Source of the DNA: Tubulanus polymorphus
Taxonomy: Eukaryota > Animalia > Nemertea
Direction: 5' to 3'
Length of the DNA stretch: 64,000 nt
Assembly (NCBI RefSeq): GCF_964204645.1
Contig: NC_134035.1
Span: 6,448,001 to 6,512,000 of the forward strand
A program made the position numbers and the translations under genes. Shown piece by piece: positions 20,101 to 53,407 of this stretch (the first letter of the stretch is position 1; the number at the start of each line of letters is the position of its first letter). The notes beneath the pieces were generated by a model, which was not told where the DNA came from, did no database searches, and saw only the letters and a program-made list of their open reading frames with translations.

Positions 20101-23100
20101 TTTTTCGTAGTTTTGGTTAGAATGCCAAAACGAAAGTTCGTTTTTACGTGGCGCCAAAACGGAATTTTCTTTGTTTCGGCGCGCCAAAACGGATTTTCAG
20201 AGAAAATTGGACGTTTTTTTTTCGTTTTCGTTTTGGCGTTCTGGCGTTCCCTGATTTACATACCAGAAATATTTCACTATGGCCCTTATCAGCCCCTATC
20301 TTATAGAGCAAAAACGATATTTTGTTTTTGCTACCCTGCAAAACATTTTACTGCGAAAAACGACAAAGATATTCGTTTTTGCTCTGAAATTTTTCGTTTG
20401 TGCTTCATAACATTCGTTTTGGCACCCTGGCATAAACGAACTTTTGTTTTTGCCTTATCGAGTTTTGTTTAGCATTTTTCTATAATCGAGGTCAAATGAA
20501 AATAATGCATTAGAGCAAAAACGAAATTTCGTTTTTGTTAGGGTGCAAAAACGAATTTTATGGCGCAAAAACGAAAATTATGGAGCAAAAATGGAAAATC
20601 ACATAGAAAAAACGAGTATTTTCGTTTTTGCGCTCTGACATTTCGTTTTTGCGCTGTAAAAGCTAAGCTGACAATATGGTAACTTTGGATTCAGTAAAAA
20701 CTTGTTCCTGTACTGCAGGGTGAAAATCCTTTTGAGTATGAACATGTAATTCTTCACCATTTTCCTTAAAAGTTAATGATCTGTGTCTAGTTTGGTAAAT
20801 ATTCATCGGTCGAGGTACTAGCGTAGCTCAAGTTTTTATTTGTCTCTCTTGGTCACAGTGGTGGCGAACGAAGTTGCCAAGATCGGTAAAGAAGACAATC
20901 AACTTCCACAGAAACCGGATGCAGTTAAGCCGGAGGAAGGAGCCATCGATGAACAACGTGACCCGGAATCGACGACATTTCCAATGATAACGACTCGAGC
21001 CGAGGAACCAAAGTTTTACAGTAAATATGCATTTTATAAATTTCATTACGATTGTTTCATATATATCGGGCGTCCCAAAGGAGATAACTGATTTCTGAAA
21101 AAAACGATTTCCCAGCTCTACCGAATTCATTGTAAATTGTCACGTCACGACAACCTTATATCAAATCACGTGCGTGCGTGTGCGTGTGTATATGCCTAGC
21201 ATCCGAACCGACAGCTTCAATTCAGATGAGCAGGACGGAATAATAATTTGTCTATTTCAGCCGTGGAATGCTACGACGCTTATGGTGATTGCAACAAAGA
21301 ATATTTGTGCCGTAGAAAAATGGAGAAATTTATCGCGTCCTGTCAATGGAACGCGCAGAAGAAAGGCTGCGATAAGAAAAAATGTCTGCCGGACATGGCC
21401 GACTATTACCAAAATGTGGCTGTTAAACACGCGCATGCAGCTGCGTTTTGCGTTTGCGAGAAAAGTGGGATAAAATGCGAGTCATTACGAGCGGTGCTAC
21501 AACCGCAGTGTGCGGTAAAAGAATCACCAACACCGTCGTGTCTGACCCTTGTCAGAAAATGTCAATCATCTTCGGATTGTAGGTATGTATAATCGCAGGT
21601 ATTACAGATCACTATAAGGACATTCGAAGTGGAACTGCATAGAACGATCTCGAAGGGTCTGGGGACAGACTGTTACCACCATCTCATTTGTTTTAGAAAC
21701 CACGATAGATGGAACTAAAACCCACAATAAGAAGGAATAACTATGAGGGTATTAAATGTTTCGGCTCAATTTTATGTGCCCTTTCGAAGCAGTTTTGGGA
21801 ATTGCTTAAATGATTGAATTGAAGCAACAATACTCTCATACTTTTTCCATCATATTGAGGGCTTTTTATCCAATTGAATCGGTCGGTCACTTGGCGGTGG
21901 AAACTTTTTATGGTACATGTCTTCGAGTATTGAGAATATTTCAAAGAAATTCAATTATCTCTTGTCAGAAAATCCTGACTGCAACATCCCTACCAGATAC
22001 AACTTAAATTTCATTTAACCAATATTTGTTGATTTAAACCTAAAATGTATTAGGTCTTTAAACAATGATGTGACCTTGGGGCGGCAATAATAACCTGTAG
22101 GTTTCAGCACTAAGTCGGTTTTGCGGAATGCTTTATTGCTCGACTACCTTGTGGGCTATAAGCCACATTCTGTAGCCGCTTCCGCATTATCTAGCGATGC
22201 CATCAAACGATGTATTTGCAACATTCTATTCGTCAACTGTTCATGATGCCAAATGGCCTAATGAACACTATCTTTAAAACTGTAAACATTACCCGAATTG
22301 TCAATTGGGGATTGGTGTTTCCAGTGCTCCGACTATTTTGTGTGCAGATCTGGTGGATGTTGCAGCGGAATACATAAATAGTTGGTATCCTACTGCGCAC
22401 TAATCCACCTTGTGGATCGTAAATTGATACAAGAAGAATCGTAGATTCCCATAATATGGTATCCTACTGCACACTAAATTGATTTGCAATCTGATTAATG
22501 TCAAGAAATCTTAATTCACTATAGACGCCGATGGGAATACTACAATAACTATTGTCACACTGATAGTAAAACAGGTGAATGTATGCACGGGAATCACTTG
22601 TGTCGTGACGCTGTAGTCGGACTTATGGGTACATTATTGATGACGAACTGTAGCTGTCAGGGGGTGCAGGACGAGGTGACATCGAGGTGTCGTGGCATCG
22701 AGGAACGACTCGTTAAAAATAGATGTAGAGGTAAAACAATAAATGAACAGTTATGTTAAATAGGTATTACTGTTTAAATAGGTATTACTCGTTGCGATTC
22801 TTAGGGCTACGGCTCCGACAGTGACGTCATATGATTGATAGATCACTTATAGAACCATGAGTATTGTGTAATTCGCCAGAAGGCCAATCGGGAAGTAAAA
22901 CATATTATTTTAACACGTTCGACAAACCATATTGAATTTAACGATGCCGATGAGTCTACTATAATAGTCGACAATGAGTTATGACTGTATCTATATTTTA
23001 TCCCTAGCCAAAGCGATTACACCGGAACCTTTTATCTACGAAGCAACTCCAGCCAACAACCTTCTCAAGGATGACAAAGAATTGATTAAATTCGAAGTGG

Positions 23101-27078: not shown

Positions 27079-29902
27079 GATGTTTGAATTCGCAATTAGC
27101 AACGGACTTATCAAAACCACGCGTGCTGTGTACACGAGGGGCGATTCCTGACAGTTTCCGAGGATTTAGTGATAACCGATAATTGTTAATAAACTAAATG
27201 CGTCTTCGTTGTTGTCAGAGCCATAGCGTTTGAAGTCAATAGCATCCAGGCGCAGTTACCATCACAGCCAGTGTATTTTATAGATGATTGGTTCATCTAA
27301 ATAGTAAACCATTGAGATATTCTGCCGATTGAAAGTAAAACTTTTACTTTCAAGTTACTCATATGGGGGAGCACCCACCTCGTGCTGTCAACAGTTAATC
27401 TGTGGTTTATGGTGCCGTTCGAGTTCGAGAAATTTATCATAATTTCAGGAGCCACGAAAGCTTTAAACACACGGTAACAATTTTTCCTACGTAAAATATT
27501 GCAGAGAGAATAGCTTTAAGCAACGAATACGCGACATCTATAGAACTATACGACGATTGTGGATTTTATATTTATCTGATTCATCATCGGTGTTGATAGC
27601 GCCACGTATGATTATATCATAGATCCTACGAATCTATGACATTGCAAATGGTTGTAATTTTTTACTTAAGTTAATGTCAGTGTGTGCTGTATAAAAAGGC
27701 ACCACCGCGGGTTCGGTATAAACTACCTACCGTCATGTGCAGAAATCACATATCGTACACCGTGTGATATCATCTTATTCCGACGTTCTGTTTTTGAGAT
27801 TCTAAAACGAATGTTTATCATAATCATTATCTTTTATTTAAATCAATTATTACTCTTTAAAAAAGAAAATCCTCGAAAATGTTGTAAATATGTGTTTTTA
27901 TAAAAATAAAAGAACGTATCACGGTGCGCGTAGGGGTCCGATCCCAACTTTTCGGCTATTTTGATCATTAGGTACAATGATAAAAATACAGCGAACAATT
28001 TAACTACATCGAATAGAAAACCGGTGCATCGAAAATAAAGCACGTGCTTAAACTATCCGCCATATAAGGAAAAGAGTGATGACGTGCAAATTCTAGCCTC
28101 GATTTGCTGCCGCTACTGCTGTGTAACGACCACAACGGTACGTTGCTACAGTCGTTTCTTAAAAAACTGCAACTTTTATCTCGTATTCGTGATGATGAAA
28201 CAATGGACAATTTGTATAGAATCTTAGGCATATATTTCAATGAGAAATTATAAAACTTTACAAGAGTTTTAGACCTGATTTCCACAAGTAACTGAAAATT
28301 GTTAACAAATATTAAATCGTTTCACGTAAGGTACGTTTATCGCAGTAAGCCCGCTCTTTTATACCTAGTGCAAGCTGTATTGGGGTTTAAATGAAGTGCT
28401 GATAGCCCTATATTTTTATGCTAGAGTTGTACTTGTTGTTTTAAACATGTGTTCTGCGTCCTGCGAAATATGACCGATTTAGCTGAGTCATTTTTCTTTG
28501 CTTTGGTTGAAATTGTGATTTTAGAGAATTCCGTGATCAATCCGAGTGTGTGCGGTTGTGCAAATTGTATATATGATGAATATTCCATATGAAATTAGTT
28601 TTCGAATCACTTGCGTGTTCGTATCGTGCGTGTGCGTGCAACGAGCAAATAAACACGCATAAAACTTATATACATATTATGAAATTATATATTTATTCGT
28701 GTAAAAATTGTAAATAAATATTGAAACTGAACAATTAAACTTCATTGTTCTATCTGTTAAACTTCATTACCTAGTTCGGGGAATTACGAACACTCGATCT
28801 CTGGATAGGATATCCTCGGATCGGTCGTTAAGTTAGAAACTCGAGTGCACGGACTGAAAACTGGTAAGCACGGTTGTAGGAGACCACGTTCTCCTATCCC
28901 CTAATTAGGCTCTGTCTCGCATGCCCAACACCAGATGGAATATGAGATCTATATTCGGAGAATAATTTCCCCAGCATTGTCGACCTTTCGGCTATGTTCC
29001 CGGTCTTCTGTGCGGCACAGAAGGAATCCTCATCCAAGCCAAAAAGTTGATCAAGTTGATCCTTCAAAGGAAGATAATTCTAACTTACTAGCCATGCGCA
29101 AATGTCGCTCATAAACGAAGAGCTACAAGCACTTGAACCAGATCGCACAGTCTCACTCCGTCCGTCGGAGTTAGATCTGGATCAAAATAATGACTTCGAC
29201 TCGGAAGCTTCAACGGACGCCATCCCTCATGCCCCAATCAATGCAGCCGTCCCATCTTTAGGAGCTACGGGAGTTCAATGAGCTCATCAGTGACGTCTTC
29301 ACGATCAAGTTTAAAGAAAACGTCATTTCTTGCGTTGAAAAGCGTTTTCGGACAACTTTTTTTCTTGGTGATCTGAGTGCCTTTGACGATAAACTATAAT
29401 TTGAGAAGCATATATCTTTTATAAGGCAAATATCTTTTAGAAAACCCCATTCCTCACGTGAATAGAGAATTCGGGGAGATGTTTTTTTCCATGTGATTTG
29501 GTTTTTGATAATAAAGTTTTTAAAGTAAAGCATGATTTTCGAGTCATCGGAAGCTAAAATAAGGCGATTTTCAATTCACCTCTTATTGAATCATCAAAAC
29601 TCCGCGCTCACTGAACTGACCTGGTCAACTGAGGTATAGGGGACTTTAGTCTCTAGTTCCTCGGATTATGCCATTCGATGAGTGATTCGGGCAATTGACA
29701 TTCAAAGTAGAATGATCATTCGACGGTTCTACAGTTAGACAATTCGACAGTTCGTTATTTCTACAATTAGACATAACGACTTACAGACATTCAACTCCCA
29801 CGATCCAGGCATCTCTACATACAGGAGTAATTGGAGAATGTGGGTTTCAGATCAGAGGGCGAGAGGTCGACATATCACCACAAGTAATTTTTTTTCTAAT
29901 AA

Positions 29903-30227
29903 ATGGGAGATAGAAAGGTATTCTTAGCAACGATAAATAGCAGAATAAAACCAGCAAAAAAACAATTTGAAATAAAAAAGTTAGTTGATGTTACAAAAGA
30001 AATTGAACATAAAATATTAAAATTAGAAAAGATAAAAACTAAATATGGAGGTAAATTTCAGCAAATTTAAGTTACTGTTATGTTAGTATAACGCGAGAAT
30101 TTAAAGTATTTTTACCTGATAGATGGGTTTCATTGAGTACAGAGGAATTAAAATATTTAGAAGGATTTAAAATAATTTACCATGGGAAAAATGAAGACGG
30201 GCATGATGTTTTAGAAGATGTTGATTA
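29903..30227 (+). pseudogene. Frameshifted paralog of ORF 11630-11971
   Basis: MGDRKVFLATINSRIK..KKLVDV..KTKYGGK / EFKVFLPDRWVSLSTEELKYLEGFKIIYHGKNEDGHD. Confidence 0.7.
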
Positions 30228-31409
30228 AAAAAATAAATTGATAATAAAATTAATTAAATATTAAGATTCCGAAATGACTTATCTGGACAATTTAATTGCT
30301 CCGCATAGATAGACAAAAGTAGTGAGATATTCAATTAATTAAAAATAAAATTATTTTTTTCTAAAATATTAATCCATTTTTGTCATTGTTAATTTTGGAA
30401 TTTCAGAAGTATTTTCATTTTTAATAGCAGTAGTTTCAGCATTATTAATATCATAAATCTTATTTGATTTCTTATACCATTTATTATGCTATAATAGTTA
30501 TAATTGCAGATGCCATTTATTTAGTAAAAAAATTATGCATTCATATAGGAGGAATATATTTTTGTTTTTCCAAATAATCAATTGTTAAATTAGATAAAGT
30601 AACTGCTAATGTTAATTTTAAAATATCATTGATATCAAATCTATCAACATTAATACTTCCCATTCTAAATACTTTTTTAAATACCATTGTATAACCAACA
30701 GTTCCAACTTATAGTAATGATCCATTATATAAACCAGTTATTATGCACTTATTATCACTCATTTATTAATCAAAAAAATTACCACCTTCAAAATATTTAG
30801 TTATCTTATTTATGATTATTTCCACATTTATTTCATTACTAGTTTCATTTGTATATATTTCAATTATTATTTTTTTAATATCACCGATGATAAAATCTTC
30901 ATCTAATTCATAAAATCTTAAAATCTTAAGACTTTCTAATTTAATCGGTTATCTTTTCTACATTAAAAGTTTCTTTGTCAATTGTTTTTTTCAATATCAA
31001 ATGTTGTTTCATTAGAAAATGCAATATTTTTAATATGTGTAATTACATAATTAATATCAAATTCCATTTCTTTCTCACGTTTAAAATCAAATCCAAAACA
31101 TATGCTCGGTCCAACAGTTATATTCATTTATATAGTGAAAAAATTACTCTCTTCATCTTATAAATAATTCATAAATTACGGGAAAATTATTTAAATCAAT
31201 TAAGTATCCATTATGATTTCTAATTTTTAATCTAAAATTATTAAACTTTGGAATACAAGGTTTAAAATCACACTCAATTATGTGATTTATAAATTGTAAG
31301 TTTTCTAGAATCAACTAATATTCTATATTCTTTTAATTCAACCATTATTTATAACACAAAAAAATTCGAACCATTAAAAATTAATCTTAATAAAATTTTT
31401 CCTTAATAA

Positions 31410-31678
31410 ATGGATGAGAAGATAGGATGTGAAATTTGTGGTGAACTTCAAAGAAAAAGTAACATGGCTCGACATGAAAAAACATGATGAAAATTATAAA
31501 CCCCCTAAAATAAACTGCCCAAATTGTAATAAATTATTCTCGAGAAATTATGTTAAAAAACATTCAGAAAAGTGTAAAATTAATGATTCAACGGTTAATG
31601 TTGATATTAATGAAAGTAATAGTAATTCTGTTGAAGTTGAATCTGAAATTATTTGGAAAAGACCTTTCTTATTCTATG

Positions 31679-31723
<45 letters not shown>

Positions 31724-32272
31724 CATGTTTTAGTGCCCTATGATAAGAATAATATGAAAGATAATTTCTGTGAGCATTGTCGAATAAAATATATCCCCGA
31801 AAATATAGAAGATTGGGAAAATCATCAATTTCGTAAAGCACATATAGATAGAATTTCTAATAAATTTGAAACAGAATTTAATGAAAGAAAAAATAAAATA
31901 TTAGAAAAAATAGAATATGAGAAAACGTTACCAGATAATAAATAAACACTTGAAAAGCTTGAAAAACAATATAATGAATTAGTAAGAAAAACATATTATT
32001 GCAAATATTGTAAATTGATTATTACAACAAGTAATTCAAATCTACATAATAGAACAATAAAACATAAAGAAAACGTAAGAAAATACCAAGAACTTAATGA
32101 AGATCTATTGCCAAGATATGAAAGAAAAAAATGCCCACAATGTATTTATGTCTACTTAAGACAAGAAGATTCTGTGATATTTTGTAATGAATGTGGATGG
32201 CAAAAAAATTTATGGGGTGATGAAAAAACTAGAGATATTCTAAATAGAACCAAAATTAAAATATCTAGATAA
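31410..32272 (+). pseudogene. Broken multi-zinc-finger ORF(s) of the Polinton-like element
   Basis: CEICGE..MARHEK, CPNCNK..KKHSEKC, CEHC..H..KAH, CKYC..H..KH, CPQC..CNEC; interrupted by (TAT)n at 31677-31722 and by frameshifts. Confidence 0.6.
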
Positions 32273-32607: not shown

Positions 32608-35600
32608 CCCCCGCCGTTAAGAACGTACACATATTGTACGAAAAAATACACTCAAATCTAAACATCGACATAGTCAAGTTTTTTCGCTTATCATAATTCC
32701 AAATGTTCAACGTTGAAGTAACACATAACCAATCCTCAGAATCCACGGAACGGCTTTTACTCTACACGCGCGAAAGTGCATCAGCAACTACGTTTGCTCG
32801 ACCTCTCAGGTGATGTATTTCCAAGTTATACTCCTGCAGCAGAATGCTCCAACTCATTAGTCGACGGTTTTTGTTTTTCATACGGTCTAAAAAGACTAAC
32901 GGATTATGATCAGTATACACACTAACTGGAAATAATGGCATACTGGGATACACATCAAAATGTTCAATTGACAAAATTAATGACAAACATTCCTTTTCAA
33001 CGGTAGAATAGTTTTTCTGTGCAGTACTGAACTTTTTTGAATAATAAGCTTATGAAAATTTGGAGCAGTTATTACAGTATCACAAGTTAACAAAGACTTT
33101 AGACTCTCAAAAGCATCATTACAGGAAGCACTCCAAACTCCTTTCTTAAGTAAGTCCGTGAGAGGACAAGCAATAGCGGCGAAATTTTGACAAAATCTCC
33201 GGTTATATCCGGCCATACCAAAAAAAACGCATGGGTGAGCGTCGATCCGAAGGAACAGGAAAATCAAGGATAGCCCTAACTTTGGCGTCAACAGGTCTTA
33301 CTTGCCCTTGTCCAACGATATGCCCCAGATACGTTACTGTTGCTTTGACAAAATCACTTTTAGTTAAATTGACGGTCAGGTTCGCCTCGGACAGACGCTC
33401 AAACAGCTTTCGTAGTGATTGTATGTGATCATCCAATGTGTCTGAAAATACAATAATATCATCTATGTACACTATTATACAAGTAAAACCCTTGACAACT
33501 TTATTCATTAGGCGCTGAAAAGTTGCAGCAGAATTTTTCATACCGAAAGGCATTTTACGGTACTGAAACAAACCATCTGGAGTCACGAAAGCAGAAATCC
33601 TACGAGCACGGTCGGACAACGGCACTTGCCAGTATCCCTTAGTAAGATCTAATTTGGAAACAAACTTAGCACTGCCAATCTTACCAATCAGATCCTCCAC
33701 CCTGGGAATTGGATAAGAATCATTTAACATGGCTTGAACTTCTCTTTTCATAATATCAGCTTTCATGGGATTCAAACGGTAAGGAGGCTGTTTGACAGGA
33801 GAAGCGGGGCCAACATCCACGTCGTGACAAGCAAAAGTGGTTTCACCAGGGATATCAGAAAACAAATGTCTTTACTCATTCTATCTCTTTTTAATTCGGA
33901 TTTCTGACCCGGCTCCAGATGGCTGAGTTTTTCATCCAACTCATTCAGCACACTTGAATTTTTCAACAACGGTGATGCATATGAACCATCAATAGTTACA
34001 TCATCTTCAACACATATATCTGTACGTCCAGGCGACACAGATAAAACTACTGAAACGGGAGAAATACTAGCAGACGGATTTCTATCCACATATTGTTTTA
34101 ACATATTTACATGACAAACACGAAATTTCTTTTTACGATCCGGTGATTCAATTAAATAATTTACGTCCGATAATTTTCGTTCTATAAAATACGGACCAGA
34201 AAACTTTGTTCTCAAACAGTGACCATCCAAAGGAAACAACACTAAAACTTTTTCACCAGGTGAAAATGACCGAAATCTGGCTTTCTGATCAAACCAACTT
34301 TTCATGTTTTCCTGGGTTTTCTGTAGATGATCACGCGCCAAGTATTGCCAAGTATTGCCAAGTTTCATACATTCGTGTCTTAAAATCAGTGACATATGTT
34401 AACAATGAAACCTCCGTAGTTTCACGCAACCAAAGATCTTTGATCAGTTTCAGTGGTCCTTTAACATGCTGGCCAAAAACTAATTCATTGGGGCTGAAAC
34501 CCAATGATTCCTGTACAGTATCTCGCACAGCAAATAACAAAACCTGCACTCCCTCATCCCAATCTCGCGAATTTTCCTCACAATAGCCTCTGGGCACATT
34601 TTTAAAAGTGCGATGAAATCGTTCCAAAGCGCCTTGACTTTCAGGGTGATAAGGACTCGACGTGTTTTGTTTAATGTCGAGTTGATGCATTATTTGCTGA
34701 AACATATTAGATACAAAATTCGACCCATTATCACTCTGAATAGTCACTGGAAGACCGAAATTAGTAAAGAACCTGGTAAAAGCCTTTATAACGGAAGGCG
34801 CGTTGATACGCCTGAGAGGTACAGCCTCTGGAAAACATGTAGATTTACAAATAATTGTAAGCAGGAATTCATTTCCTGTGCGAGTTTTTGGAAGGGGACC
34901 TACACAATCACAGAGAATATCAGCAAACGGCTCTGAAAAGGCAGGTATAGGTTGTAACGGTGCTGCAGGAAATACTGTACTCTTTCCTATCACTTGACAA
35001 CAGTGACAGCTCCTACAAAACTGAACAACATCAGATTTCAAACCTGGCCAAAAGAAATACCTTAATATCTTTTTATACTTTTTATTGACGCCTAAATGGC
35101 CATCTATAGGTGTATCATGAGCAAAATGTAAGATCTCTTTTCTATACACCAAAGGAACTACAATCTGATGTTGCACTGCCCATTCATCACTAGGCAAAAT
35201 ATCAGGGTGTCTATACTTTCTCATCAATACACCAGAATAAAAATAATAACCGCCGGGACAATCTAAATCATCTAGAGTAGATGCAGCGTTAACGCTAAGC
35301 TTTCTAACATCTGAATCCTGCACTTGTGACTCGATTAAATCTGCTCTAGATAAGAAACGTAATTTCTCAAAATCACAATCTGCCCCATCAAAAATCTTAC
35401 TAAGAAACGTCTCACTAAGGCCCTCAATATGGTTTGAACCAACATCTAAATTATAATTTTGACCTATAGAATCAGACGAAAAAGATTTATCATCACTACT
35501 AGCTCCAACATTATTTCTTTTCGCTAACGAACGAGTCACCACGCAAGCAGGATGTAATCCCAGATCACTAGATTCCGAAGATTCCACATCCGAATCTAAA

Positions 35601-37215
35601 CTATGGTTTTTAGTCACTAATGGATTGACAATAACCCTCCCCCAACAAGATCGTTACCTAACAACAAAGACACGCCCGGAACGGGTAAAGTAGGCCTAAT
35701 CCCCACTATAACGAACCCAGAAATTCATGACGTCTCAAGGTAAACTCTATGAAGTGGAACTTCTATCGTGATCGGACCAATGCCACGCAACAAAATATAC
35801 TGGCCAGTAAATGTGCTTTCTGACAAAGGTAAGCTCCCTTCTAACAACAACGTTTGAGAGGCCAGTATCTCTTAAGGCTTTTAATTTCACCTTTTCTGAA
35901 GTTTCACCTTCAATAATAAATGGTTCGTAAGATCTTGACTGCTTTCAAAATGAACAGGTTTATCTTTGCACTCGATTTTTGTTGCAAGACCATTCCCTAA
36001 CGTATGTAGAGAATTGCTACCCTTTTGTTGTTTTCCCTGTAACTTGTAACAGTTTGAAATTAAATGACCGGGCTTTTTGCAATAATTACATCTCACAAGT
36101 CTATCTCGATCTCTATGATCAGAAACAAGGGAATATGTTGATTTATTGAACACGGAAGATGGTTGGGTGATATTCGGCTTTTTACTTTTCTGGTGAGTTA
36201 AAGCATAATCATCAGAAAACGTAGCTGCATTCAATAAATTATCAACCTTTTGCTCTTCTAAATAGGTTTTTATATCATTACCTATACAAGTTTTGAAATC
36301 TTCAACCAGCATTAATTGACGTAATTTTTCAAAATCACTATCTACCCCTCTCGAGTCGCACCATCTATCAAATAGACTCTCTTTATCTTTAGCGAATTCT
36401 ACAAAGTTTCTGAATCAGTTTTTCTCCGATCGCGAAACCTTTGTCTATAGGCTTCAGGTACTAACTCATACACCTTCAAAATAGCAATTTTAACTGTTTC
36501 ATATTGAGCACTTTGTTCAGAATTCAAAGCCGAATAAGCTACCTGGGCTTTGCCCACTAGAACACTTTGCAGGAGCAGTGTCCAGCTTTCTCGGGGCCAC
36601 TTAAGATTGTTCGCTACCTTCTCAAAGTGACGAAAATACTTATCTACTTCCGACTCCTGGAATCTGGGTACCATTCTGATGTGACGGGTGACGTCAAAGT
36701 CGACTTCATTATCTCGATATCTACTGGTAGACGCACTGATTTCCAATTCACGCATCCGCACTCTGTGTTCACCCTCCATCCGCTGTAACGATAGTTGAAA
36801 GTGCCTTTCTCGCTATTTTTCTCTCTCTTGAAACTCCAGTTCGATACGTCGAATGATAACACTCTCCGGAACATCGGACATTTTAGCTGGAACTGACTCA
36901 AACTGATCATTATTAACTACACCAGATTCAATCAAATGTCGCACAATTACGTCCTTTAGATCCGCTTTTGTTTGGGACGTTTTAACAGATACGTTATAAT
37001 GAGCTGCCAAATCAAGCAACTCGGACTTTTTTAGAACATTTATACTTTCTCGGCTAGGTATATCGATAAACGTCTGAAATGACGAAGTGGCCATTTTAAT
37101 CACGAAGAAATGAGAACTTAAACAAGAACAGGTACAGTACCTTGAAAATATAAGCAGTAGACCTATCAACACTGACGCCGCGAAAAACAACAAATCTCGC
37201 TTCATGAGTTAGCTC
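32310..37215 (-). mobile_element. Gmr1-clade Ty3/Gypsy LTR retrotransposon, degenerate, 5' LTR missing
   Basis: Minus-strand order gag (FRHFEKVA..W..GKA..YRQRFR; CNYCKKPGHLISNC), PR (LRDTG ~35863-35877), integrase (34331-35617: HHCC, D..SDNG..ERFH), RT (33203-33865: LDLTKGYWQ, YIDD), RNase H (TDHNPL, ADALSR). Confidence 0.9.
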
Positions 37216-37285
37216 AGAAAAGAAAATTTAATTATATTTATTATTTAACGATTATTATAAAAAACCCAAATTAACAAAAGAAGAT

Positions 37286-37516
37286 ATGGAAAATATAAAA
37301 GAAACATTGACAAACATATTAAAATATTATGTGGATAATAAAATAACAGATTCAATTAATTATGAATTCTGTTTAAATAAGATTGTAAATTTTTTAGACA
37401 TCGATATTATAATTCCATTTGATGAATTAACGAACAAAAAGAAACAAAGAGAGCTAGATGAAATGTGGAACAATATAGAACTGAGAAAAATGAAATGGAA
37501 GAACCTAAACAATTAA
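37286..37516 (+). CDS. Small hypothetical ORF, probably part of the Polinton
   Basis: 76-aa AT-rich ORF convergent with polB; no recognised motif. Confidence 0.35.
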   Translation: MENIKETLTNILKYYVDNKITDSINYEFCLNKIVNFLDIDIIIPFDELTNKKKQRELDEMWNNIELRKMKWKNLNN

Positions 37517-37579: not shown

Positions 37580-40500
37580 TTGTTATAACTTTTTAGCTTC
37601 ACGATCTTTTGTTCTATAACTATATATTTTACTTCTTATCCCAACAAATTCAATCATTTCATCACCCCCTAATTCATCTTCGAACTTACCAGGCTGCTTT
37701 TTATTATCATTGCTAAATAATTCATGATATTTTGGATAATTGCTAAAGTCAAAATGATGTTTTAATGTTTTTCAGTCTTTTGTTATGTCATTTGTCTTGA
37801 TTTTTAGTATGTAACTGTCAGTATTGACCGCTATTAATGGAAATCCACAGTTAAATGTTCCATCTTCAGTTGATAAATCATAGATATAATCTGATGGGTT
37901 AAATATTTCAAATAAATCTCTTACTTCTTCTGTTATTTCTTTTTCAGTGTGACTTAAATTATATTCTTTTGGATTATTCTTTCTTATACCAACATTCATA
38001 TTGAATCCCAATGATGAGCACAATATATTTAATCCACTTATTGCACATTTTCCATTTTGAACAAATCGAATTGTTTTATGTTTTGTGTATCTTTTTGTTC
38101 CATCTGGGCAAAAAATCCTATAAAATACCATTTTCTTAAATTGTACGGTGCATTTAATACATAATCTGGAATTATCTTTTCTCTTTTTTTATCTACAATT
38201 CCATCAATATAAAATTCATTACTGTACTTAATAGTAAAATCTTTAGGTTTTAAACATTTTAAGAAAAAACATTTTGAAGTTTGCATCTGATTATACATTT
38301 TAGATATTTTATGCGGATAAACTTCTTCACAATATTTTTTGATTCTTTCAAAAGGTTTTAAATCTTGATTACATAAACACCAACAATAAAGAATAGAACT
38401 AACATATTTATATACACCTGCTGAACCATCTCCCATAAAAAATCCTTTGATAAAATATTCTTTTTCTTCTAATGTTTCGGGTACTATATTATATATATTA
38501 TCAATTATTTCATCAAATGACATATGATTCATTCTTTGGAAAAATCTTTTATGTAATAATTCATCTCCAATTTTTATATCAGTTGGTTTTATTCCATCAC
38601 CATTTCGTTTAATTAAACTATGATCTTCTGTAACATCTACAAACCCTAATTTAGTTCTAACTCTATAGATTTTCTTATTTGTTTTATGCCTAATAATATT
38701 CTTTAATTAATTCCATCCAATTCTTGTCCAAACATCCATTAATCCAATTATTTGTATTAATTCTTTTTCACCATATGAAATATAAAGTTCATTTTGTTTT
38801 GGAATTTTTCTGAAATTCTTCTAATTAATATTTTGTTATTGTATTTTAATAATATTGGGGTATCAGCCGTTACAGAATCAAAATAAGATATTTCAATATG
38901 TTTTTACCAAAAAAGTGGTTGAAAACATTAATAACAAAAATCATACATTAATAATTTTGATATTTCTAAAACAGTCGAACCAATGAATATAGGTTTATTA
39001 AATTTCATTGACGTTCTTTTTAATTTTACCGCGGTTAAATAATCTTCAAATCTTTTATTTCCTAAATGTCTAGGACTTGATTGTAAATGTCTCAATCGTT
39101 CAGAATTATTTAATAATTCAATATCATTTCTATTTCTAATATTTTCGCATGTTTTTTCCATAAAAACTATTATTCATTAATTTGAAGAAATCTTTTTCAA
39201 AATCTGTTTTAGATATGGTTCTCTGTTGAGTATTAAAATCTATATATTTTTCTAACCACTTCGATAGATTAAATTCAATATATCTATGTACTTTCTTTAA
39301 TTTCATTCCTTGTTTTAGATAAAATTTTAACATTCTATAATGGACAATATAATTGTATTTATTATTTTGAGTAAGTATTACTTTTTCTGTAAAAACATGA
39401 TCTTTCGGTTTAATTTTTTTCTGGTATTCACTTAAATAACTATCATCTACGGCTAAATGTTCTGGGCAATATGGTAAGCTTCTTGTTTTAAACTTAATGC
39501 TATCAGGATATTCTTAATAAACTACAAAGAAATAACCAATTGGTGCTTCATCTTTTAAACCCATAATTGCACTTTCCCAATCAGTTTTATCATCATTTTC
39601 AACTTCTGTTAATATAAAATTTTTGTATGGTTGAGGTTGCATCATTGCCCAACCATATAGATTATTTGCATCAATATACAATAATTTATAATCATCATTT
39701 GCTTTAAAATGTCTATCTCCCATAACATCACTAATTGATTTTTCAAATAATAAAACCATGTCTGGTTCTTTTAATAAATCTAAATCTACATTTGTATATT
39801 TTAAACCACATTGCCAGGTTAAACCAGAACTTGAATAACAATAACAAGGATCAACATTAAAATGATTTGAATTAACTTCTCTAAATTTTTCAAATATGTC
39901 AGCCAATATCATAACATCTGATTTTAAGTATAAATCTACTAATTAACCATGATTTTTTATCTTAAAATGATTCCAAATATTTAATGTTCTTTTAAACACT
40001 TCATCTTTCACATACTCCTCTTTTTATTGATCATAAAATTGTTCTTTTGATAATTCTGTTACATAAAAATCATCATGTGTTTTATAAAATGAATAAGGAA
40101 TTGCACCTTTAAATCTCAAAAATTTGAAATCTTGTTCATTTGGATAATAATGTCGAGTTATTATAAAATCATTATCAACTAAACTCTTTGCTAAATTATC
40201 TAATGAAATTGCTAAAAATCTATAAGAATCTAAAAATCTAATGCAACCAAATGAAATGAAATACAATTTTCAGATGTCTTAGCTAATAGTTTAAATCATA
40301 TTTTCTTACATTTGCACCATTCATAGCATTATATTCTTCTATGTCTTGATTATTTGCACCCAATTTTCCTGATAATTGTTTTATAAATAAGTTGGTATCA
40401 TACCCTGATAAATTATGAAATAATATTGGTAGGAAATTTACTTTTTTACAATCTTCATGAGCAGCTCCACGATATTTTGAATCTAAATGATCATGATCAC

Positions 40501-41557
40501 TAACTTTTTTATCAAATGAATAAAAACGTTTTTCACAGTAACAACAATGAGTTGCATAATTAAAATCAATTTCATCTTCTTTTGTCATAACTATTCCTTC
40601 ATTTTTGTTTAATAATTGTGCAAAATCACTTTCTAATTCAATTATTTTATTACCAAATTCATTTAATACATCTTCACCTCTAAAAGAAATATATTGACTT
40701 TGATATAATTCAGGGTAATTTTATTTTATATAAATTCCATAAGCAGCAGCTCGTTGATGTCCTTGTTTAATTGTATTTATAATTGGTGGGTCTTGAATTA
40801 TATCTTCATTTAGTTCATTTCCTTTATCCATTCAACGATTCAAAATCCCCATAAATTACAAATGGCACTATATTCTTGAATTTATGATTAGTAAATTTCA
40901 ATTTTCAATCTTTTTCTGTTGGCATTATTAATTTGCAAAAATCTTTATTATCACATAATTCTTTATGTTTTAATAATGTATTTTCAGTCATAAATTTCGA
41001 TAAACATTTTCTACATAGATAAATTTACGATGATGATCGCTTTCTGTTCTAAAGAATAAATCAATTTGTTTTAACAACATATAATGTTCATTTTCATAAT
41101 TCATTTTCATCATAATATTCTGTTAAATATAAAGCTTCCAATGTATAATCTTTAATATTTTCACCTTTTGTCTCTGGTAATTGCATTAATTCGAATACAT
41201 TTATTTTTACATTATTAAATTTTTCTATTTTAGGAATCATTTTTATAGTTACTGGATATTGATCAATTTTATATAATGTTTCATATTTCCGGTAATCTGT
41301 TATTCTACAAACATTTTCCTGAGTTGGATGTAAACAACTAATAATTGACCATAGAAAACATTTATTATCTTCATTTTGAACATTTATTACTGCTTTTGTT
41401 GTAAATGGTAATTTAATATAAGATGATGCTTTAATATCCTTTTCTGTTGTAAACTTTGAATCATTTTAAAGATTGTATTACTTTTTGATGCTTTATTCCT
41501 TTTTGTATTATAAATATTCAAATCTAAAAATATAATTTCATTCAATGTTAAACCAGA
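37580..41557 (-). pseudogene. polB: Polinton/adintovirus protein-primed family B DNA polymerase, frameshifted, intein-containing
   Basis: INVQNEDNKCFLWS, DHDHLDSKYRGAAH, FHNLSGYD, RFLDSYRF, LYIDANNLYGWAM, FFKLMNNSFYGK, KPIFIGSTVLEISKLLMYDF, YFD^TDS, NKKQPGKFEDE, EFVGIRSKIYS. Confidence 0.92.
37823..38876 (-). mobile_element. Intein with LAGLIDADG homing endonuclease in the pPolB YFD^TDS motif (degenerate)
   Basis: Block A SVTADTPILL directly after YFD; block B VDVTEDHSL; LAGLIDADG motifs YFIKGFFMGDGS and YFIGFFA(fs)DG; blocks F/G YIYDLSTEDGTFNCG..AVN followed by +1 Thr (TDS). Confidence 0.9.
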
Positions 41558-42060
41558 TGTCAATACCTTTTCTCCAGAAAGAAGTGACTAGCAGTACGAC
41601 TCGGTGTTGACATTAAAGTAGTTTATTCTCAAAAGTGACTCCCTCTACCCTTTACATATCGATATATATAGTGAAATATCACATGATGTGTACTGAGCAT
41701 GACGTACAGATGTAATGCAGTTTAGGCTAAAAAAAATTGATACCTTGTTTCTCCGCTCTGCTGAGCTTAAATGTTGACCCGGCCGGCCGCCTATCTACCC
41801 TATACATTACTTTTTTTTAAATCGTGATCAATTTTACCATAACAGACCCGGCCGCTATAGAAATGAACTGTTTACAAATTCTATCATATTTTACAAAAAT
41901 GACCCGGCCGCTGCGGAGAAACAAGGTATCATTTTTGTTTAGCCTTAATACAGTTTAATACAGTTGAACACAGTTGAGTACACGTTACTGCAGAACAAGT
42001 TACTGCTCAAGTGAGCAGTATTCTATAGTTGATATAAATGTATGTATAACCATTCCAATA
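41558..42060 (-). repeat. BEL 3' LTR containing a MITE
   Basis: Near-identical to 47683-47964 apart from a 220-bp insert. Confidence 0.9.
41725..41944. mobile_element. PIF/Harbinger-type MITE
   Basis: ~32-bp TIRs GGCTAAA..GATACCTTGTTTCTCCGC; TTA TSD confirmed by the empty site in the other LTR. Confidence 0.85.
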
Positions 42061-43828
42061 TACTCCCGCCAGGCGTAAGCGTGATTAAAGTACACATAAA
42101 TTTGAAAGAGTTATCAATATATACACGATTTTAAACTACTATCGCATATTCATTAATACAAAATTTGAAAGTACACATTGTTCATTAATACAAAATTTGA
42201 AAGTACACATTATTCATTAATACAAATTGTCGGATTGCTCCGCCGCCGCGATGGCCGTGATCTTCTCTGCTGCAACGGCAGCAGCTCTTTTCGGTCGCAC
42301 ATTCGCTTCTCCCGCTGTTTTTGTAGCCGAATAGTTCGATACGGATGCAAAATCGGTTGACGCATAAACTTCGAGAGGGTACAGTTTCGGCAACGCTCTA
42401 TTCGTGTGACCTCTCGGCGGTTTTTAACGAAACATTGCGTACTTTTCCGTCCTTTCCACGATGTAACTCCGTAATTACGCCAAGTCGCCATTTCAATCGT
42501 GGCCCATCATCGTGAATTTGACCGACCGAACCTTTTTTCACTAATTCCGTATCAACTCCCTTACATTTCTGATATTCGCGCAAATTTAACAAGTATTCAC
42601 CTTTCCAGCGTCTCTTATATTCACTGAGGAGCAAGGAAATATATTTCATCCTACGTGTTAACAATTCGCGAGTGACACAAAAATTTGGATCATTCAACTC
42701 ATGATCTCGCACACTAGGTTGAGGTAACCCGGTTATCCGGTGACCGAACATTAACATGGATGACGTCAAAGCTTCTAAATCTGAAACATCTGACGTTAGA
42801 TAGGTCAACGGTCTATCATTTAAATGAGATTCAACTTCAATTAAAAAAGTATTTAACTCATCATAGGTAAGTAGAGCTCTACCGAGTACTTTTTTGGTTA
42901 TATTTTTCACCAACCCAATCAATCGTTCGTAAAACCCCCCTTGCCAGGGGGCCCTCTTAGCTATGAATTGCCATTTCACCCTGTTCACGGATAGATAGTC
43001 CGTTACTTCAACCGATGAAATAATTTCATCTAGAATTTTATTCGCTGATGTAAACGTTGTTGCGTTATCAGAAACACAAGTCCTCGGCAAACCTCTACGA
43101 CCTGCTAACCTACGTAACGCTAACAAAAAACAATCAGGAGTTAAATCCCGAACTAGCTCTAAATGCACCGCTCTGCTGACCGCACATGTAAATAAACAAA
43201 CGTGGCATTTAGAGGTTTCACCACCAGATCCCTTAAATCACAAGTGGACCTAAATAATCAATACCAGTATGGTGAAAGACTGGAACCTCTGAAACTCTGA
43301 TACCAGGTAGTGAAGGAGGTAACGGTAAGAAAAAGGGTCTACCTTGCACACGTTTGCACACTTACAGCATGATTTCAGTAGGTCCTTTACTCTTTGACGG
43401 ATACTCGGTATCCAATATTTACATCGAATATCGGCAACAGTAGCATTAACGCCTTGATGCATTATTCTGAAATGTGATCGACGAATCACCAAATTGACAT
43501 ACTGGTGATATTTTGGAAGCAGTATTGGTCGTTTAGCCAAATCGTCCAAATCTGCATTCTCTAACCGACCATTCGAATGAATCAAGCCATCATTACCAAT
43601 AAACAACTGTAAATCTTTTATCAACCTGTCAACAACCGGAGCTCTAAATGACTTGTCACCCGACAATCGCGCAAACACCAGAGGATATTCTGATCTTTGA
43701 ATACACAATAACCACACTTTCTCAGAATTGTTTAGATCATCAGCCGAAATACTGTCAAAGTTTCTATCAGAAACTTTTACCTTACAATTATTTATGAAAC
43801 GAAGTACTAAGGTAGTCAAACTGAACAA

Positions 43829-46800
43829 CTAAGTTAATGACGAGAAACCATCTGCATCTACTACTTTCGAAGTGCCGACAGGTTCACTTTTTTCAATTGA
43901 AACATATTGTACACATGTAGATGTATTTATGTGTATAATCGGAATTTGATTTATTCGATCTGCGATGTCAATTGGACCGCACAACCACTGCCCGTTAGAA
44001 AATAGTGCAGATACGCCTCTAGTCAATAAATCAGCTGGATTTCTATCACCATTACAAAATTGCCACTTATCAAAGTCACAAATAGATTTAATAGCACGAA
44101 TTCTATTGGCAACAAATTCTGGTAATTTTTTATCACTTCTCAGCCAACTCAACACAATCTGACTATCCGAATAATATTGCGTTTCGATTACAGGATACGA
44201 TTGTGTTAATTCATCACAAATATATTGCCCTAATTTAGCGCCTAACATCGCGGCCATGAGTTCTAAGCGTGGAATTGTGACCTGCTTCAACGGGGCTACC
44301 CGGCCACGACTCAATATGAATTGAATCTTACCCCCTTGATCAAGATAAGCCACAGCGCCATAAGCCGGCTGACCGGCATCGACAAAAACATGTCGACAAA
44401 ATTTTACCGGTAAATTGGTATCGAATCCATACCATCTGGGTACGTGCATATTTCTAATCGCATAATTCAGATCTGAAACTATTCTTTGCCACTGTAGACC
44501 AAATTTCTCTGGTACTGGTGTATCCCAATCATATGATTCTCTCCACAATGTTTGAGTTAATATTTTCCCCCTAATAGAAATTGGTAATATAAGACCAAAC
44601 GGATCATAAATCTTGGCTAAATTTTGAACAATAGTCCGTTTCGTAGTACCAGAGAATTCGTCTAATATAACCTTTTCTTTGAAGGTGATAATATCTTGCT
44701 CAATACTCCAATAAAATCCTAAGACATTCACATGATTTGAATATTCCAATACTTTCTCGGATTCTGCCAATGAACGTACCTCTTCACTGTTTGAAGACCA
44801 GGACCTTAAATTCATTCCTGCTAGAGAAAAGATCTCTCTCGAAGACTTAAGATAATCTAAGCTATTCTCCTCGGAATTGCATGATGTCAATATGTTATCT
44901 ACGTAAATGTTTCGTAGAATATCGGAACTCGTTCGACAATTTTCAGTTACTACCTGATTCCGTAAATGATGTAGAATTGTGCAATTCAAAATAAATGGAG
45001 AACAGGTAGCACCAAATAATACTCGTTTGAAACGATAAGTTACTAGTTCAGAATCTGGATTTCCTGGCTCTCTAAACCAAACGAATCTAGTTACATCCCT
45101 ATCTTCAGGGTCGATGCCTATTTGGAGAAAGGCTTTTTCGATGTCCGCACAAAGACCAATCTCGTTCAATCTAAATCTCAATAAGATACCTGTGAGATCG
45201 TTCTGTAGAGCTGGACCAGGTTCTAAACTATCGTTCAAACTAGGTGATCCAAAACTACAATCAAAAACAATTCGAATTGGAGTTGTATTCGATTGTCTGT
45301 ACACAGGATGATGTGCCAAATAATGTACTCGTCTCGATGATGGATGTAAATCATCCACCGGAACAATCTCAATATAATCTCGTTTCAATTGCTCATCGAT
45401 AATCTCCGAATAGATTTTAAGAATTTCCGGAGTTTTTGAAAGTTTCTTCAAAGTTGATTTAGTCCTATTTACAACTGCACAATAATTAGTTGTTAACGTA
45501 TCATGTTCAGTTTTCCAAGGTAATTTCACATTGTATCGACCGTCATTGTCTTTCCATATGAAATCACAAATGTACTTATCAACAAAACTCTCATCCGATA
45601 ATTTTTCAATCCCCATTTCGTCACAATTCAAAGAAAATTCAGGGTATGACAAAACACTCATTATCGAAATTTTATCACTGGAAGTACCAGTCGGACCCGA
45701 CACCAAATAACCAACACATGATTTTATAGCTACAGGACCTTGTTTTGATCTGATTATCTCAGAACTAACAAAATCGTAATAATGATCGCTTCCAATCAAA
45801 AATTGAACTTCAAATTTGCACTCTGAGTGAATTGGATTAGCCAAATTTAAATCTTTGAATTCAGGAATCTCAAGAAAACCACCCATGTCTAATGGACGTA
45901 TAATCATCGGAACCACCAAAACAGATACTTCGATTAAATACGAATTCTCACACTCGATGCATATTTTTACGACATCCAAAGTTCTAACTTTCGAATTCTG
46001 TGATCCAAATGCACCTAAATCTAGTGTTTCAGTCCTACTGGATTTCAAACCTAACTGACTCGCCATTTTGGCCGTCATAAATGATCGCTGCGAGCCATCA
46101 TCGAACAATGTATTACAGGACACAATAGAACCACTATACGGTTTCTCGATATTAACAACTGCAGTCTTCAACAGAACATTTCCGAAAGAATTACACAAAC
46201 TAATATTCTGAGATGCCGTTTGTGTCTCAATGTGATCATCACTTCGTATTAAAGACTCTGTTTCAAAAATTGGAACCGATGAAGACTGCGTTGTCACAGA
46301 ATTTGTCATATTGCTTTTGATTCTATTTTGCTCATTACCTATACCACGGTTTTGACCTTCCTCAACGGAAAAATTGACACCTCTAGAATTCGGAACAGAA
46401 TAAGGTCGTGTTTTCCGCGTTTGAAAACAAATACTGGTGTGATGTCGCTTTTTACACATACGACACGAATATTTAGACTTGCAGTTTCCGGCATGATGCT
46501 TATCTCCTAAACAATTAAAACACAAAGATTTGTTTCTCAGAATTTCCATCCTCTTTTTAACATCATTAACTACAGTGCACTCATTGGATGCATGCAAACC
46601 TTCGCAAAAAACACACTTCTTTTTAGAATTCTGAGCTCCGGTCGATAAGAATAATTGACTTACGGTGCTTGTAGGTTCAGTAATAGTACAATTACTCACA
46701 TCTTTGACATCAAGAGATACAGTGGACTCAATAATTTCTAATTCGAATCTAAAACAATCAAGAAGAGATGTTATTGACCATTCACAATTTTTGTATGTGC

Positions 46801-47428
46801 GACACATATTTCGATAGATTTCATACGGAAGCTTTCTTATAATTATTGGTACCAACATTGCGCCGTAATTATCATGAGACGTCCCAAGTGCATTCAACTG
46901 ACGCATGTGACAATTACATTCGTCGTAAAATTTACGCAGGGATGATCGTTCGTTGTTCGGTGGACTTAAATCAACAAGCGCGGAAAGGTAAGCCCGTGAT
47001 ATCTTGTGATTCTGTCCAAATCGCGTTTTCAACAAACTAACAGCCGCTGAATAATTGTCATTCGTCAATGGCAAACCGTCAATGCACGATCTTGCATCGC
47101 CGATTAGCAAACACTTCAAATAGCTACATTTTTCGATATCCGAAAACTGTGAGTTGAGATGAACTGACGTTTCGAATAAACCCCAGAACGTTGGCCACTC
47201 TTTCAAATTTCCGTTATATTTCGGAATTTGTAACTTTGGTAGTAAAGCTGTTTTAATTTCAGTTGATCTCACTGGTGACTGTTTCTCTAGCGAAGACATT
47301 TTCCCGATTTCACGGTCAAATTTGAAAATACTGCCATTCAAATTGTTCAAATAATCTTCAGCTTCCAAAATAAATTGTTCTATTTCATTATCAGACTGGA
47401 TCTCGTCTAATAAATGGGCATCAATCAT
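43829..47428 (-). CDS. BEL/Pao gag-pol polyprotein, main open segment
   Basis: 1199-aa ORF; continues in frame past TAG into 43250-43828 and, after a frameshift, into integrase 42398-43168. Confidence 0.9.
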   Translation of the reverse strand: MIDAHLLDEIQSDNEIEQFILEAEDYLNNLNGSIFKFDREIGKMSSLEKQSPVRSTEIKTALLPKLQIPKYNGNLKEWPTFWGLFETSVHLNSQFSDIEKCSYLKCLLIGDARSCIDGLPLTNDNYSAAVSLLKTRFGQNHKISRAYLSALVDLSPPNNERSSLRKFYDECNCHMRQLNALGTSHDNYGAMLVPIIIRKLPYEIYRNMCRTYKNCEWSITSLLDCFRFELEIIESTVSLDVKDVSNCTITEPTSTVSQLFLSTGAQNSKKKCVFCEGLHASNECTVVNDVKKRMEILRNKSLCFNCLGDKHHAGNCKSKYSCRMCKKRHHTSICFQTRKTRPYSVPNSRGVNFSVEEGQNRGIGNEQNRIKSNMTNSVTTQSSSVPIFETESLIRSDDHIETQTASQNISLCNSFGNVLLKTAVVNIEKPYSGSIVSCNTLFDDGSQRSFMTAKMASQLGLKSSRTETLDLGAFGSQNSKVRTLDVVKICIECENSYLIEVSVLVVPMIIRPLDMGGFLEIPEFKDLNLANPIHSECKFEVQFLIGSDHYYDFVSSEIIRSKQGPVAIKSCVGYLVSGPTGTSSDKISIMSVLSYPEFSLNCDEMGIEKLSDESFVDKYICDFIWKDNDGRYNVKLPWKTEHDTLTTNYCAVVNRTKSTLKKLSKTPEILKIYSEIIDEQLKRDYIEIVPVDDLHPSSRRVHYLAHHPVYRQSNTTPIRIVFDCSFGSPSLNDSLEPGPALQNDLTGILLRFRLNEIGLCADIEKAFLQIGIDPEDRDVTRFVWFREPGNPDSELVTYRFKRVLFGATCSPFILNCTILHHLRNQVVTENCRTSSDILRNIYVDNILTSCNSEENSLDYLKSSREIFSLAGMNLRSWSSNSEEVRSLAESEKVLEYSNHVNVLGFYWSIEQDIITFKEKVILDEFSGTTKRTIVQNLAKIYDPFGLILPISIRGKILTQTLWRESYDWDTPVPEKFGLQWQRIVSDLNYAIRNMHVPRWYGFDTNLPVKFCRHVFVDAGQPAYGAVAYLDQGGKIQFILSRGRVAPLKQVTIPRLELMAAMLGAKLGQYICDELTQSYPVIETQYYSDSQIVLSWLRSDKKLPEFVANRIRAIKSICDFDKWQFCNGDRNPADLLTRGVSALFSNGQWLCGPIDIADRINQIPIIHINTSTCVQYVSIEKSEPVGTSKVVDADGFSSLT

Positions 47429-47682
47429 CTCTCACCGGCTGTATTTGCGTTTGAGATTGTTCAAATTAATACTAGCCTTTAGTAAGTCGTGTTCTCTGAT
47501 AGCTGTATCACATGCAGAGGTAAGAGCGTTCGCGACTCTTCTGTTTGCTGAACGTCCTGCTCTCGAAAGTTTTACACCAACTCCTGATTTTTCGGTAGCT
47601 GAATTCTCCGCCATTGTTCTCTGATCCTCTGGCTTCTTCTAAGAAGTTTGGTTCATCTCTTTCTCGGCTCGAGGGACCATTA

Positions 47683-47964
47683 TGTCAATACCTTTTCTCC
47701 AGAAAGAAGTGACTAGCAGTACGACTCGGTGTTGACATTTTAAAGTAGCTTATTCTCAAAAGTAACCCCCTCTACCCTTTACATATCAATATATATAGTG
47801 AAATATCACATGATGTGTACTGAGCATGACATACAGATGTAATGCAGTTTAATACAGTTTAATACAGTTGAACACAGTTGAATACACGTTACTGCAGAAC
47901 AAGTTACTGCTCTAGTGAGCAGTATTCTATAGTTGATATAAATGTATGTATAACCATTCCAATA
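47683..47964 (-). repeat. BEL 5' LTR
   Basis: TGTCAATACC..CCATTCCAATA; PBS immediately internal. Confidence 0.9.
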
Positions 47965-53059: not shown

Positions 53060-53098
53060 AGCAAGCTTTCACCTACATTCTGTAGGCATCGTCAGGCT
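53060..53098 (-). ncRNA. Minimal hammerhead ribozyme candidate
   Basis: AGC-CTGACGA-T-GCCTACA-gaa-TGTAGGT-GAAA-GCTT-GCT. Confidence 0.55.
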
Positions 53099-53368: not shown

Positions 53369-53407
53369 AGCCTGACGATGCCTACAGAATGTAGCTGAAA
53401 GCTTGCT
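53369..53407 (+). ncRNA. Minimal hammerhead ribozyme candidate (mirror copy, one stem II mismatch)
   Basis: AGC-CTGACGA-T-GCCTACA-gaa-TGTAGCT-GAAA-GCTT-GCT. Confidence 0.5.

Follow-up and report, generated by a model that had tools for sequence, protein, structure and literature searches.

A decayed LAGLIDADG intein interrupting motif C in the relic of a protein-primed DNA polymerase, likely from a Polinton, in the DNA of a nemertean

Is the insert in the polymerase relic of this locus an intein, and how could an intein of giant-virus type come to lie in animal DNA? We analyzed these questions in the window, which is the whole stretch of 64,000 nucleotides from Tubulanus polymorphus. Our main reading, to which we assign a probability of about 0.78, is that a canonical LAGLIDADG intein, now dead, interrupts the family-B DNA polymerase (PolB) of a likely animal Polinton, and that it belongs to a single clade which likely goes back to one giant-virus entry and was likely kept by homing.

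On the minus strand, the polymerase reads IEISYFD up to 38877 and resumes with TDSYILKIKT after an insert of 1,054 bp, which opens with Ser at 38876 and closes with Asn at 37823. The insertion point is polymerase motif C, YFD-TDS (the hyphen marks the insertion point here and below). The initial annotation had placed the insert at 37823..38876 and proposed that removing 1054 bp rejoins YFD and TDS; the coordinates proved exact, and the rejoined motif was confirmed on the sequence. The Ser start, the TxxH block B, the terminal Asn without a penultimate His, and the Thr +1 which it had named are all present in the window. The insert has the following features.

37823..38876, minus strand: intein with a Hint splicing domain and a two-motif LAGLIDADG endonuclease, decayed (from the sequence and relatives)
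38841..38876, minus strand: block A with the Ser1 nucleophile (aligned with relatives and Mimivirus; TIGR01445 E=0.057)
38620..38631, minus strand: block B, TEDH (TxxH) (sequence and alignment)
38422..38445, minus strand: LAGLIDADG motif 1, GFFMGDGS, with the acidic residue retained (sequence and alignment)
38099..38118, minus strand: LAGLIDADG motif 2, broken by a frameshift (sequence, tblastn, and alignment)
37823..37888, minus strand: blocks F and G, with the conserved Asp, a penultimate Val (not His), and the terminal Asn (sequence and alignment)

The intein carries frameshifts near 38806 and near 38105 and a stop at 38709-38707. Its decay had been described as one stop and about three frameshifts; the stop stands, whereas two frameshifts were found, matching the two frame changes within the insert in a tblastn of the intact relative P0001, whose intein is 57-60% identical to that of the window. 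The window copy is dead and incapable of the predicted splicing or homing. Pieces of it stayed under the cut-offs of the Pfam profile Intein_splicing (PF14890, E=4e-4) and of TIGR01445 (E=0.013 and 0.057), so that its identity as an intein rests on its relatives, which pass PF14890 or TIGR01445. At the level of Hint and intein profiles, the earlier assignment thus holds for the relatives and not for the window pieces. A stop-free 200-aa piece of the insert matched 283 proteins among 662 candidates with a best E=1.7e-65, and this homology excludes a chance resemblance. Judged from its sequence, the window insert is a genuine LAGLIDADG intein in motif C of a protein-primed PolB relic.

The exteins and their surroundings are as follows.

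38877..41557, minus strand: N-extein of a protein-primed PolB relic, with an endonuclease-VII-like insert and many stops and frameshifts (PF03175 E=3e-11; tblastn)
37586..37822, minus strand: C-extein, opening with Thr+1, truncated (74-77% identical to P0160 and P0172)
37232..37513, plus strand: VLTF3-like gene fragment beside the polymerase (PF04947, 26.9 bits with a cut-off of 25)
41557..47964, minus strand: BEL/Pao LTR retrotransposon abutting the relic (Pfam; two LTRs)
32765..37220, minus strand: Gypsy-type element with the integrase upstream of the reverse transcriptase and a SCAN-like gag (Pfam)
21230..21589, plus strand: host exon with a GDNF/GAS1 domain (PF02351 E=1.2e-8)

The polymerase relic spans 41557-37586, in 4.3 kb between two retrotransposons, and its 5' end is severed by the BEL/Pao LTR. 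By tblastn, the N-extein is 49-69% identical to P0160 and P0172, and its endonuclease-VII-like insert weakly matches PF02945 (E=0.029). The intein-free P0160 aligns on both sides of the insert, with 67% and 74% identity, and reads IEIMYFD-TDSYIL there. Together with the PF03175 match, this alignment bears out the earlier view that the flanks belong to one protein-primed PolB. The flanks match PF03175 only, with no PF00136 or PF03104 of a giant-virus (RNA-primed) PolB, and tblastn of P0004 and P0058 on the window matched the intein region and nothing else; a giant-virus polymerase as the host gene is ruled out on these grounds. From the weak PF03175 match, the relic is likely a member of the divergent 'Beta' PolB class.

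The host element of the window intein is likely a Polinton. No Polinton capsid, ATPase, integrase, or protease was identified in the window, and no terminal inverted repeats or target-site duplication were seen around the relic, whose two ends are replaced by other elements. The name Polinton therefore rests on the polymerase and its VLTF3-like neighbor. The neighbor has a GC content of 0.22, compared with 0.24-0.28 for the polymerase, and likely belongs to the same Polinton. The BEL/Pao element has LTRs about 96-98% identical and no obvious target-site duplication, which suggests that a rearrangement removed the 5' part of the Polinton. A 223-bp inverted-repeat (MITE-like) element lies inside the BEL LTR at 41722-41945; in runs X1-X3 its depth is very high and a joint of the empty site occurs. 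For the Gypsy-type element, whose integrase-before-RT order we take to be Gmr1-like, no LTR pair was found in the window. We assume that the GDNF/GAS1 family is restricted to animals and that BEL/Pao elements are typical of them; the exon, with the BEL/Pao and Gypsy elements, marks the window as animal DNA. Of the 'animal Polinton' in the initial annotation, the animal host and the protein-primed PolB stand, whereas a capsid, an integrase, and terminal repeats were not found in the window.

Intein-bearing relatives were sought with the stop-free 200-aa piece, and the best 120 of the 283 matches were examined by family. Among these 120, ranks 1, 2, 3, and 5 are intein-bearing protein-primed PolBs, and 115 carry PF00136, the Mimivirus PolB included. 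The 376 proteins pooled from the searches contain 20 protein-primed PolBs with the intein and 110 without an intein match, many of which are fragments. The 20 occupied PolBs form nine lineages (P0001, P0002/P0124, P0238, P0003, P0135, P0153, P0136, P0137, and P0005), and with the window there are ten protein-primed PolB lineages that hold a same-site intein with exact in-frame junctions. The reading frame is unbroken across the intein in six of them (P0001, P0005, P0124, P0135, P0136, and P0137), all of which keep Ser1, TEDH, both LAGLIDADG acidic residues, the block F Asp, the Asn, and the Thr+1 at 42-59% identity in most pairs. A penultimate His occurs in P0135, P0136, and P0137 only; most members are without it, like Mimivirus. 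This PolB group also bears an endonuclease-VII-like insert. Among 47 fragments found later, 40 are closest to this intein clade, with P0399 closest to the window (60%) and P0412 closest to P0005 (66%).

Several relatives pass the profile cut-offs: P0135 that of the Pfam intein profile (37.7 against 35.8), P0124, P0135, and P0136 that of TIGR01445, and P0001, P0005, P0135, P0136, and P0137 that of PF14528. An AlphaFold model of the P0002 intein, built on 38 rows that come mostly from viral inteins, has high confidence in the intein part only: the blocks have a pLDDT of 78-98 apart from one at 56, and the exteins are below 50. Solved inteins with an endonuclease lead its PDB matches (7qsu, E=4.8e-16), and it also matches giant-virus polymerase inteins. 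A single-sequence fold reached a pLDDT of 33, and a PDB profile search with alignment A4 gave matches dominated by polymerase columns. With cut-offs passed and a predicted model that matches solved inteins, the relatives have a Hint domain; a Hedgehog-type Hint domain is ruled out by the downstream extein and the endonuclease.

The ESM Atlas matches listed (clusters of 50 or more members) included no cluster that combines PF03175 with an intein, no relative was found in IMG/VR scans with P0001 and P0160, and no protein-primed PolB was among the 80 loci listed from an IMG/VR scan with alignment A2. The DNA pattern of the junction occurred in no IMG/VR record and in three metagenome stretches, one of them real (L040), and the phage records gave one weak match. 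Six contigs in prokaryotic MAGs (L041-L046) carry giant-virus-type PolB inteins at 28-48% identity and are likely viral contigs binned into those MAGs. Among the 120 matches listed, a type II topoisomerase (P0115) has a PolB motif-C-type intein in residues 512-858 at the look-alike site VDSD-TDG, a possible jump between unrelated genes.

Other copies in the organism of the window were surveyed as short contigs in the four runs X1-X4, taken from two samples of a single organism. Diverged intein-bearing copies are many and occur in both samples. Contigs of diverged copies bridge the N-terminal intein/polymerase junction in 4/4 runs and the C-terminal junction in 1/4, among the 32 of 933 pieces listed. 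The summed depth, which is not a copy count, is about 55 for the window's own copy and 14,600-39,500 over 38408-38887 in X1. The relic's element type is endogenous and multicopy in a eukaryotic genome. No exact skip of the 1,054-bp intein was among the 10 joints listed for this organism; a joint from 37824 to 38936 (side 22) was considered as an empty allele and was too weak to call.

We consider it unlikely that the intein clade resides mainly in Polinton-like viruses of protists or symbionts, with the animal copies as occasional captures; in that case, intact active inteins would have no true residence in animal genomes. The intact relatives were all drawn from assemblies of ENA, JGI, or Logan, the polymerase tree described below has a 52-row clade without the intein, and the VLTF3-like neighbor is a giant-virus-type gene, which would all suit such an origin. 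However, the window is animal DNA and its organism holds many diverged intein-bearing copies in two samples. The P0135 cluster has 136 members (15 listed) on contigs up to 1.0 Mb and the P0002 cluster 121 members (15 listed) on contigs up to 55 kb, which is the picture that multicopy families of a large genome should give. The ESM Atlas neighbors of P0135 are mostly arthropod and mollusc clusters, with scores <0.9 that make them a lead only, and VLTF3 is reported from coral polintoviruses in the part of that source available (PMC11131425).

The origin of the clade was addressed with intein trees. In a broad tree of 151 rows, dereplicated at 85%, 10/10 protein-primed inteins fell in one clade. 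A focused IQ-TREE analysis included 51 rows, with the 10 protein-primed inteins, 35 of 141 others spanning the broad tree, and 6 archaeal same-site inteins as the root. The protein-primed clade was recovered there at 100/100 and fell, together with Mimivirus, in a group supported at 98/98; without the Polinton clade, the viral inteins were monophyletic in 0% of 200 bootstrap trees. A sister relationship between the Polinton inteins and the viral inteins as a whole was not rejected by the AU test, with p=0.16, and p=0.45 under a simpler model with time-cut searches. The nearest viral sister was unstable, being P0090 at 81/42 in the 51-row tree and other rows in the 151-row tree. The sequences suggest that the likely direction was from giant virus to Polinton.

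A transfer from an NCLDV PolB into a Polinton had been proposed in the initial annotation; sequences labeled 'NCLDV' in our analysis are those whose best match is to two giant-virus-type polymerases, and other large DNA viruses may be among them. The kinship is supported by the PF00136 proteins among the listed matches and by the group with Mimivirus, whereas the direction is not forced by the two AU values.

The polymerase tree had 82 rows, 8 occupied and 74 empty, and was built without 20 near-duplicate or partial rows and without the tract around the site. The occupied lineages branch alike in the polymerase and intein trees, and the polymerase tree forces at least 6 intein gains or losses. 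Intein and polymerase pairwise identities were correlated with r=0.89 (Mantel 6/40,320, 8 lineages). This co-divergence points to one old invasion, followed by homing and loss. A recent one-off transfer into the window element is ruled out, since the intein diverged along with a group of Polinton polymerases.

The P0005 polymerase had no significant match to P0160 (best E=0.40), and by its motif we take its insert to be VSR-like. The P0005 intein is 42-49% identical to the other clade inteins and nests with that of the window at 98/87 in the 51-row tree; a position as sister to the other nine was not rejected in the AU test, with p=0.25 (0.33 with time-cut searches). The evidence for P0005 is one protein, encoded on a contig of 5.3 kb. 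From these sequence comparisons, the intein likely crossed once into a second, unalignable protein-primed PolB class.

Three families hold both occupied and empty alleles. The occupied P0124 and the empty P0127 are identical at 740/746 extein residues, and the occupied P0238 and the empty P0240 have a common C-extein as judged by eye. Among the listed P0135-cluster proteins >1,100 aa, 7/12 are occupied and 5/12 empty. In this cluster, 10/10 fixed substitutions between the two states fall at -6 to +44 of the site, and two further fixed columns are an indel in one row. Compared with one occupied allele, the empty alleles have 10-15 differences in the 46 positions near the site and 7-55 in about 1,100 elsewhere. 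The empty alleles have three motif-C haplotypes, and the occupied flank reappears in more distant occupied relatives. This pattern fits homing co-conversion, target-site escape, or both, which are inseparable because the evidence is protein sequence. Intein-free homologues of the kind that the initial annotation had suggested seeking thus exist, with contiguous empty sites in P0127, P0160, P0240, and the P0135 cluster.

In the empty alleles P0222 and P0220, motif C reads HYTD-CDS, with Cys for the usual Thr, and it reads TDA in P0223, P0224, P0226, and P0227. Such variation is unusual for a catalytic motif, and these variants are candidate homing-resistant sites. The P0250 cluster, sister of the occupied P0136/P0137, has 39 members on contigs up to 3.7 Mb; its site is visible in 7/15 listed members and empty in 7/7.

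An acyl shift at Ser1, transfer to the +1 residue, Asn cyclization, and ligation are the established chemistry of inteins. In an intact member of this clade, the Ser1 acyl shift would be aided by TxxH, followed by transfer to Thr+1 and cyclization of the terminal Asn, and ligation of the exteins would rebuild the YxD-TDS active site. Since splicing would restore the active site, the polymerase would depend on it. The targets of the endonuclease would be vacant motif-C sites in other Polinton copies, whether these share its nucleus or belong to a co-infecting genome. The cut copy would be repaired on the occupied one as template and thereby gain the intein along with part of its flanks; empty alleles would persist through loss or diverged target sites. 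The history would then be one old entry from a giant-virus-type polymerase, a long residence with loss and re-invasion, and one jump between polymerase classes, to that of P0005. Splicing, DNA cutting, homing, and co-infection are inferred here, and the 'drive' would target other Polinton copies rather than host genes.

A quite improbable alternative to an entry maintained by homing is that the intein is ancestral in this PolB group, perhaps as sister to the viral PolB inteins, and has been lost precisely and repeatedly, with homing no longer of importance. The agreement of the intein and polymerase trees is compatible with loss only, as is the sister position, which the AU test did not reject. 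However, both endonuclease motifs are retained in 6/6 intact lineages at their level of divergence, and such retention is hard to explain without selection for homing. The occurrence of occupied and empty alleles at 99% identity, the clustering of fixed differences at the site in the P0135 family, and the presence of the intein in the unalignable P0005 class also argue against it. The joining of a giant-virus PolB fragment to a Polinton gene by assembly or chance insertion has a negligible probability: most listed matches of the insert are giant-virus-type polymerases, but ten lineages have exact, in-frame junctions and inteins that form a 100/100 clade of their own, and in two samples contigs from other copies run across the junctions. 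With the P0124/P0127 allele pair and the similar GC content of the insert (0.25) and flanks (0.24 and 0.28), this leads us to reject such a joining.

Returning to the reading of an old entry kept by homing, the chances are about even that this is a living animal intein family, in which an old giant-virus intein still splices and homes among nuclear Polinton copies, drives escape of the motif, and has jumped between two deep PolB classes. The conserved intein would imply that these polymerases are expressed and under selection. Here an intein lies in animal DNA, brought there through a likely endogenous virus. The transfer between unalignable polymerases would require Polinton and giant-virus-type DNA to meet in one cell, and such a meeting bears on the question of an infectious phase of Polintons in the company of giant viruses. 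With occupied and empty members at 99% identity, these families would make homing, co-conversion, and target-site escape measurable within one genome.

The publications compared here were available in part, and our statements on them refer to those parts. The PolB inteins of Mimivirus (351 aa; Ogata et al., 2005, PMC549080) and other giant viruses occupy the same motif-C site, theirs being YGD-TDS; the initial annotation had named this shared site, and P0058 confirms it. They have in common with this clade a length of 337-354 aa, Ser1, TEDH, Asn, and Thr+1, two LAGLIDADG motifs, and 42-49% identity. The Mimivirus intein (P0058) has the same splicing residues, likewise without a penultimate His, as described in PMC549080. 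In contrast, the inteins reported here have a protein-primed PolB host with no alignable similarity beyond noise (scores 49-77), form their own clade, and belong to an element that is endogenous to an animal genome and multicopy there. Archaeal PolB inteins also have the same site (YGD or YAD before and TDS or TDG after it, in 11 archaeal loci) and the same splicing residues, but are set apart from the viral and Polinton inteins by a branch of 2.8 substitutions per site.

Nuclease domains within Polinton polymerases are known as HNH/VSR endonuclease inserts (Jeong et al., 2023, PMC10748475; Krupovic et al., 2024, PMC11071308), which were suggested to 'result from intein invasions' (Krupovic et al., 2024). 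Those inserts sit at other positions, whereas a full Hint and LAGLIDADG intein lies in the active site here; the words intein, Hint, and LAGLIDADG are absent from the available text and supplement of Jeong et al. (2023). Inteins in viral-like DNA polymerases occur on Klebsormidium, Tetrabaena, and labyrinthulomycete nuclear scaffolds (Gallot-Lavallee et al., 2023, PMC10710043), and an intein of Chilo iridescent virus is cited in PMC549080. These inteins are likewise virus-borne and reach eukaryotic nuclei or infect an animal, but they concern non-animal genomes or a free virus, and animal, metazoa, and polinton do not occur in the available part of PMC10710043. Polintons/Mavericks (adintoviruses; Starrett et al., 2021, PMC8502044) resemble the relic in their protein-primed PolB and as endogenous multicopy elements of animal hosts, and differ in the capsid, ATPase, integrase, and terminal repeats that were not found in the relic; no intein is mentioned in the available text and supplement of that study.

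The accessible part of a survey of eukaryotic inteins speaks of their 'absence from metazoan genomes' (PMC5784728). The available parts of PMC12220804, PMC13768754, PMC5718144, PMC11131425, 10.64898/2026.06.19.733378, and 10.64898/2026.10.13.758929 contain no case of an intein in a Polinton or protein-primed PolB. The literature covered, with InBase, Repbase, and subscription journals outside its scope, describes no Hint/LAGLIDADG intein for Polintons or for protein-primed PolBs. An intein in such a polymerase, in animal DNA, is apparently undescribed; it would represent a familiar type of intein in a host class new to it, with signs of homing.

Some further observations concern the rest of the window. 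An AT-rich patch past the Gypsy element, at 29900-32270 (GC 0.19-0.26), contains decayed ORFs and zinc fingers (zf-U1 at 31946-32269). Its fragment 31156-31314 may resemble a minor-capsid end. No diagnostic Pfam match was found in this patch, which may be more of the same Polinton. A second AT-rich patch lies at 11500-13200 (GC 0.17-0.24); ORF 11801-11968 is similar by eye to ORF 30055-30225, and tblastx at 1e-3 made no link between them. In the regions 51890-54652 and 57500-62140 there are tandem arrays of 31 bp, along with dispersed repeats that have (ATT)n tails.
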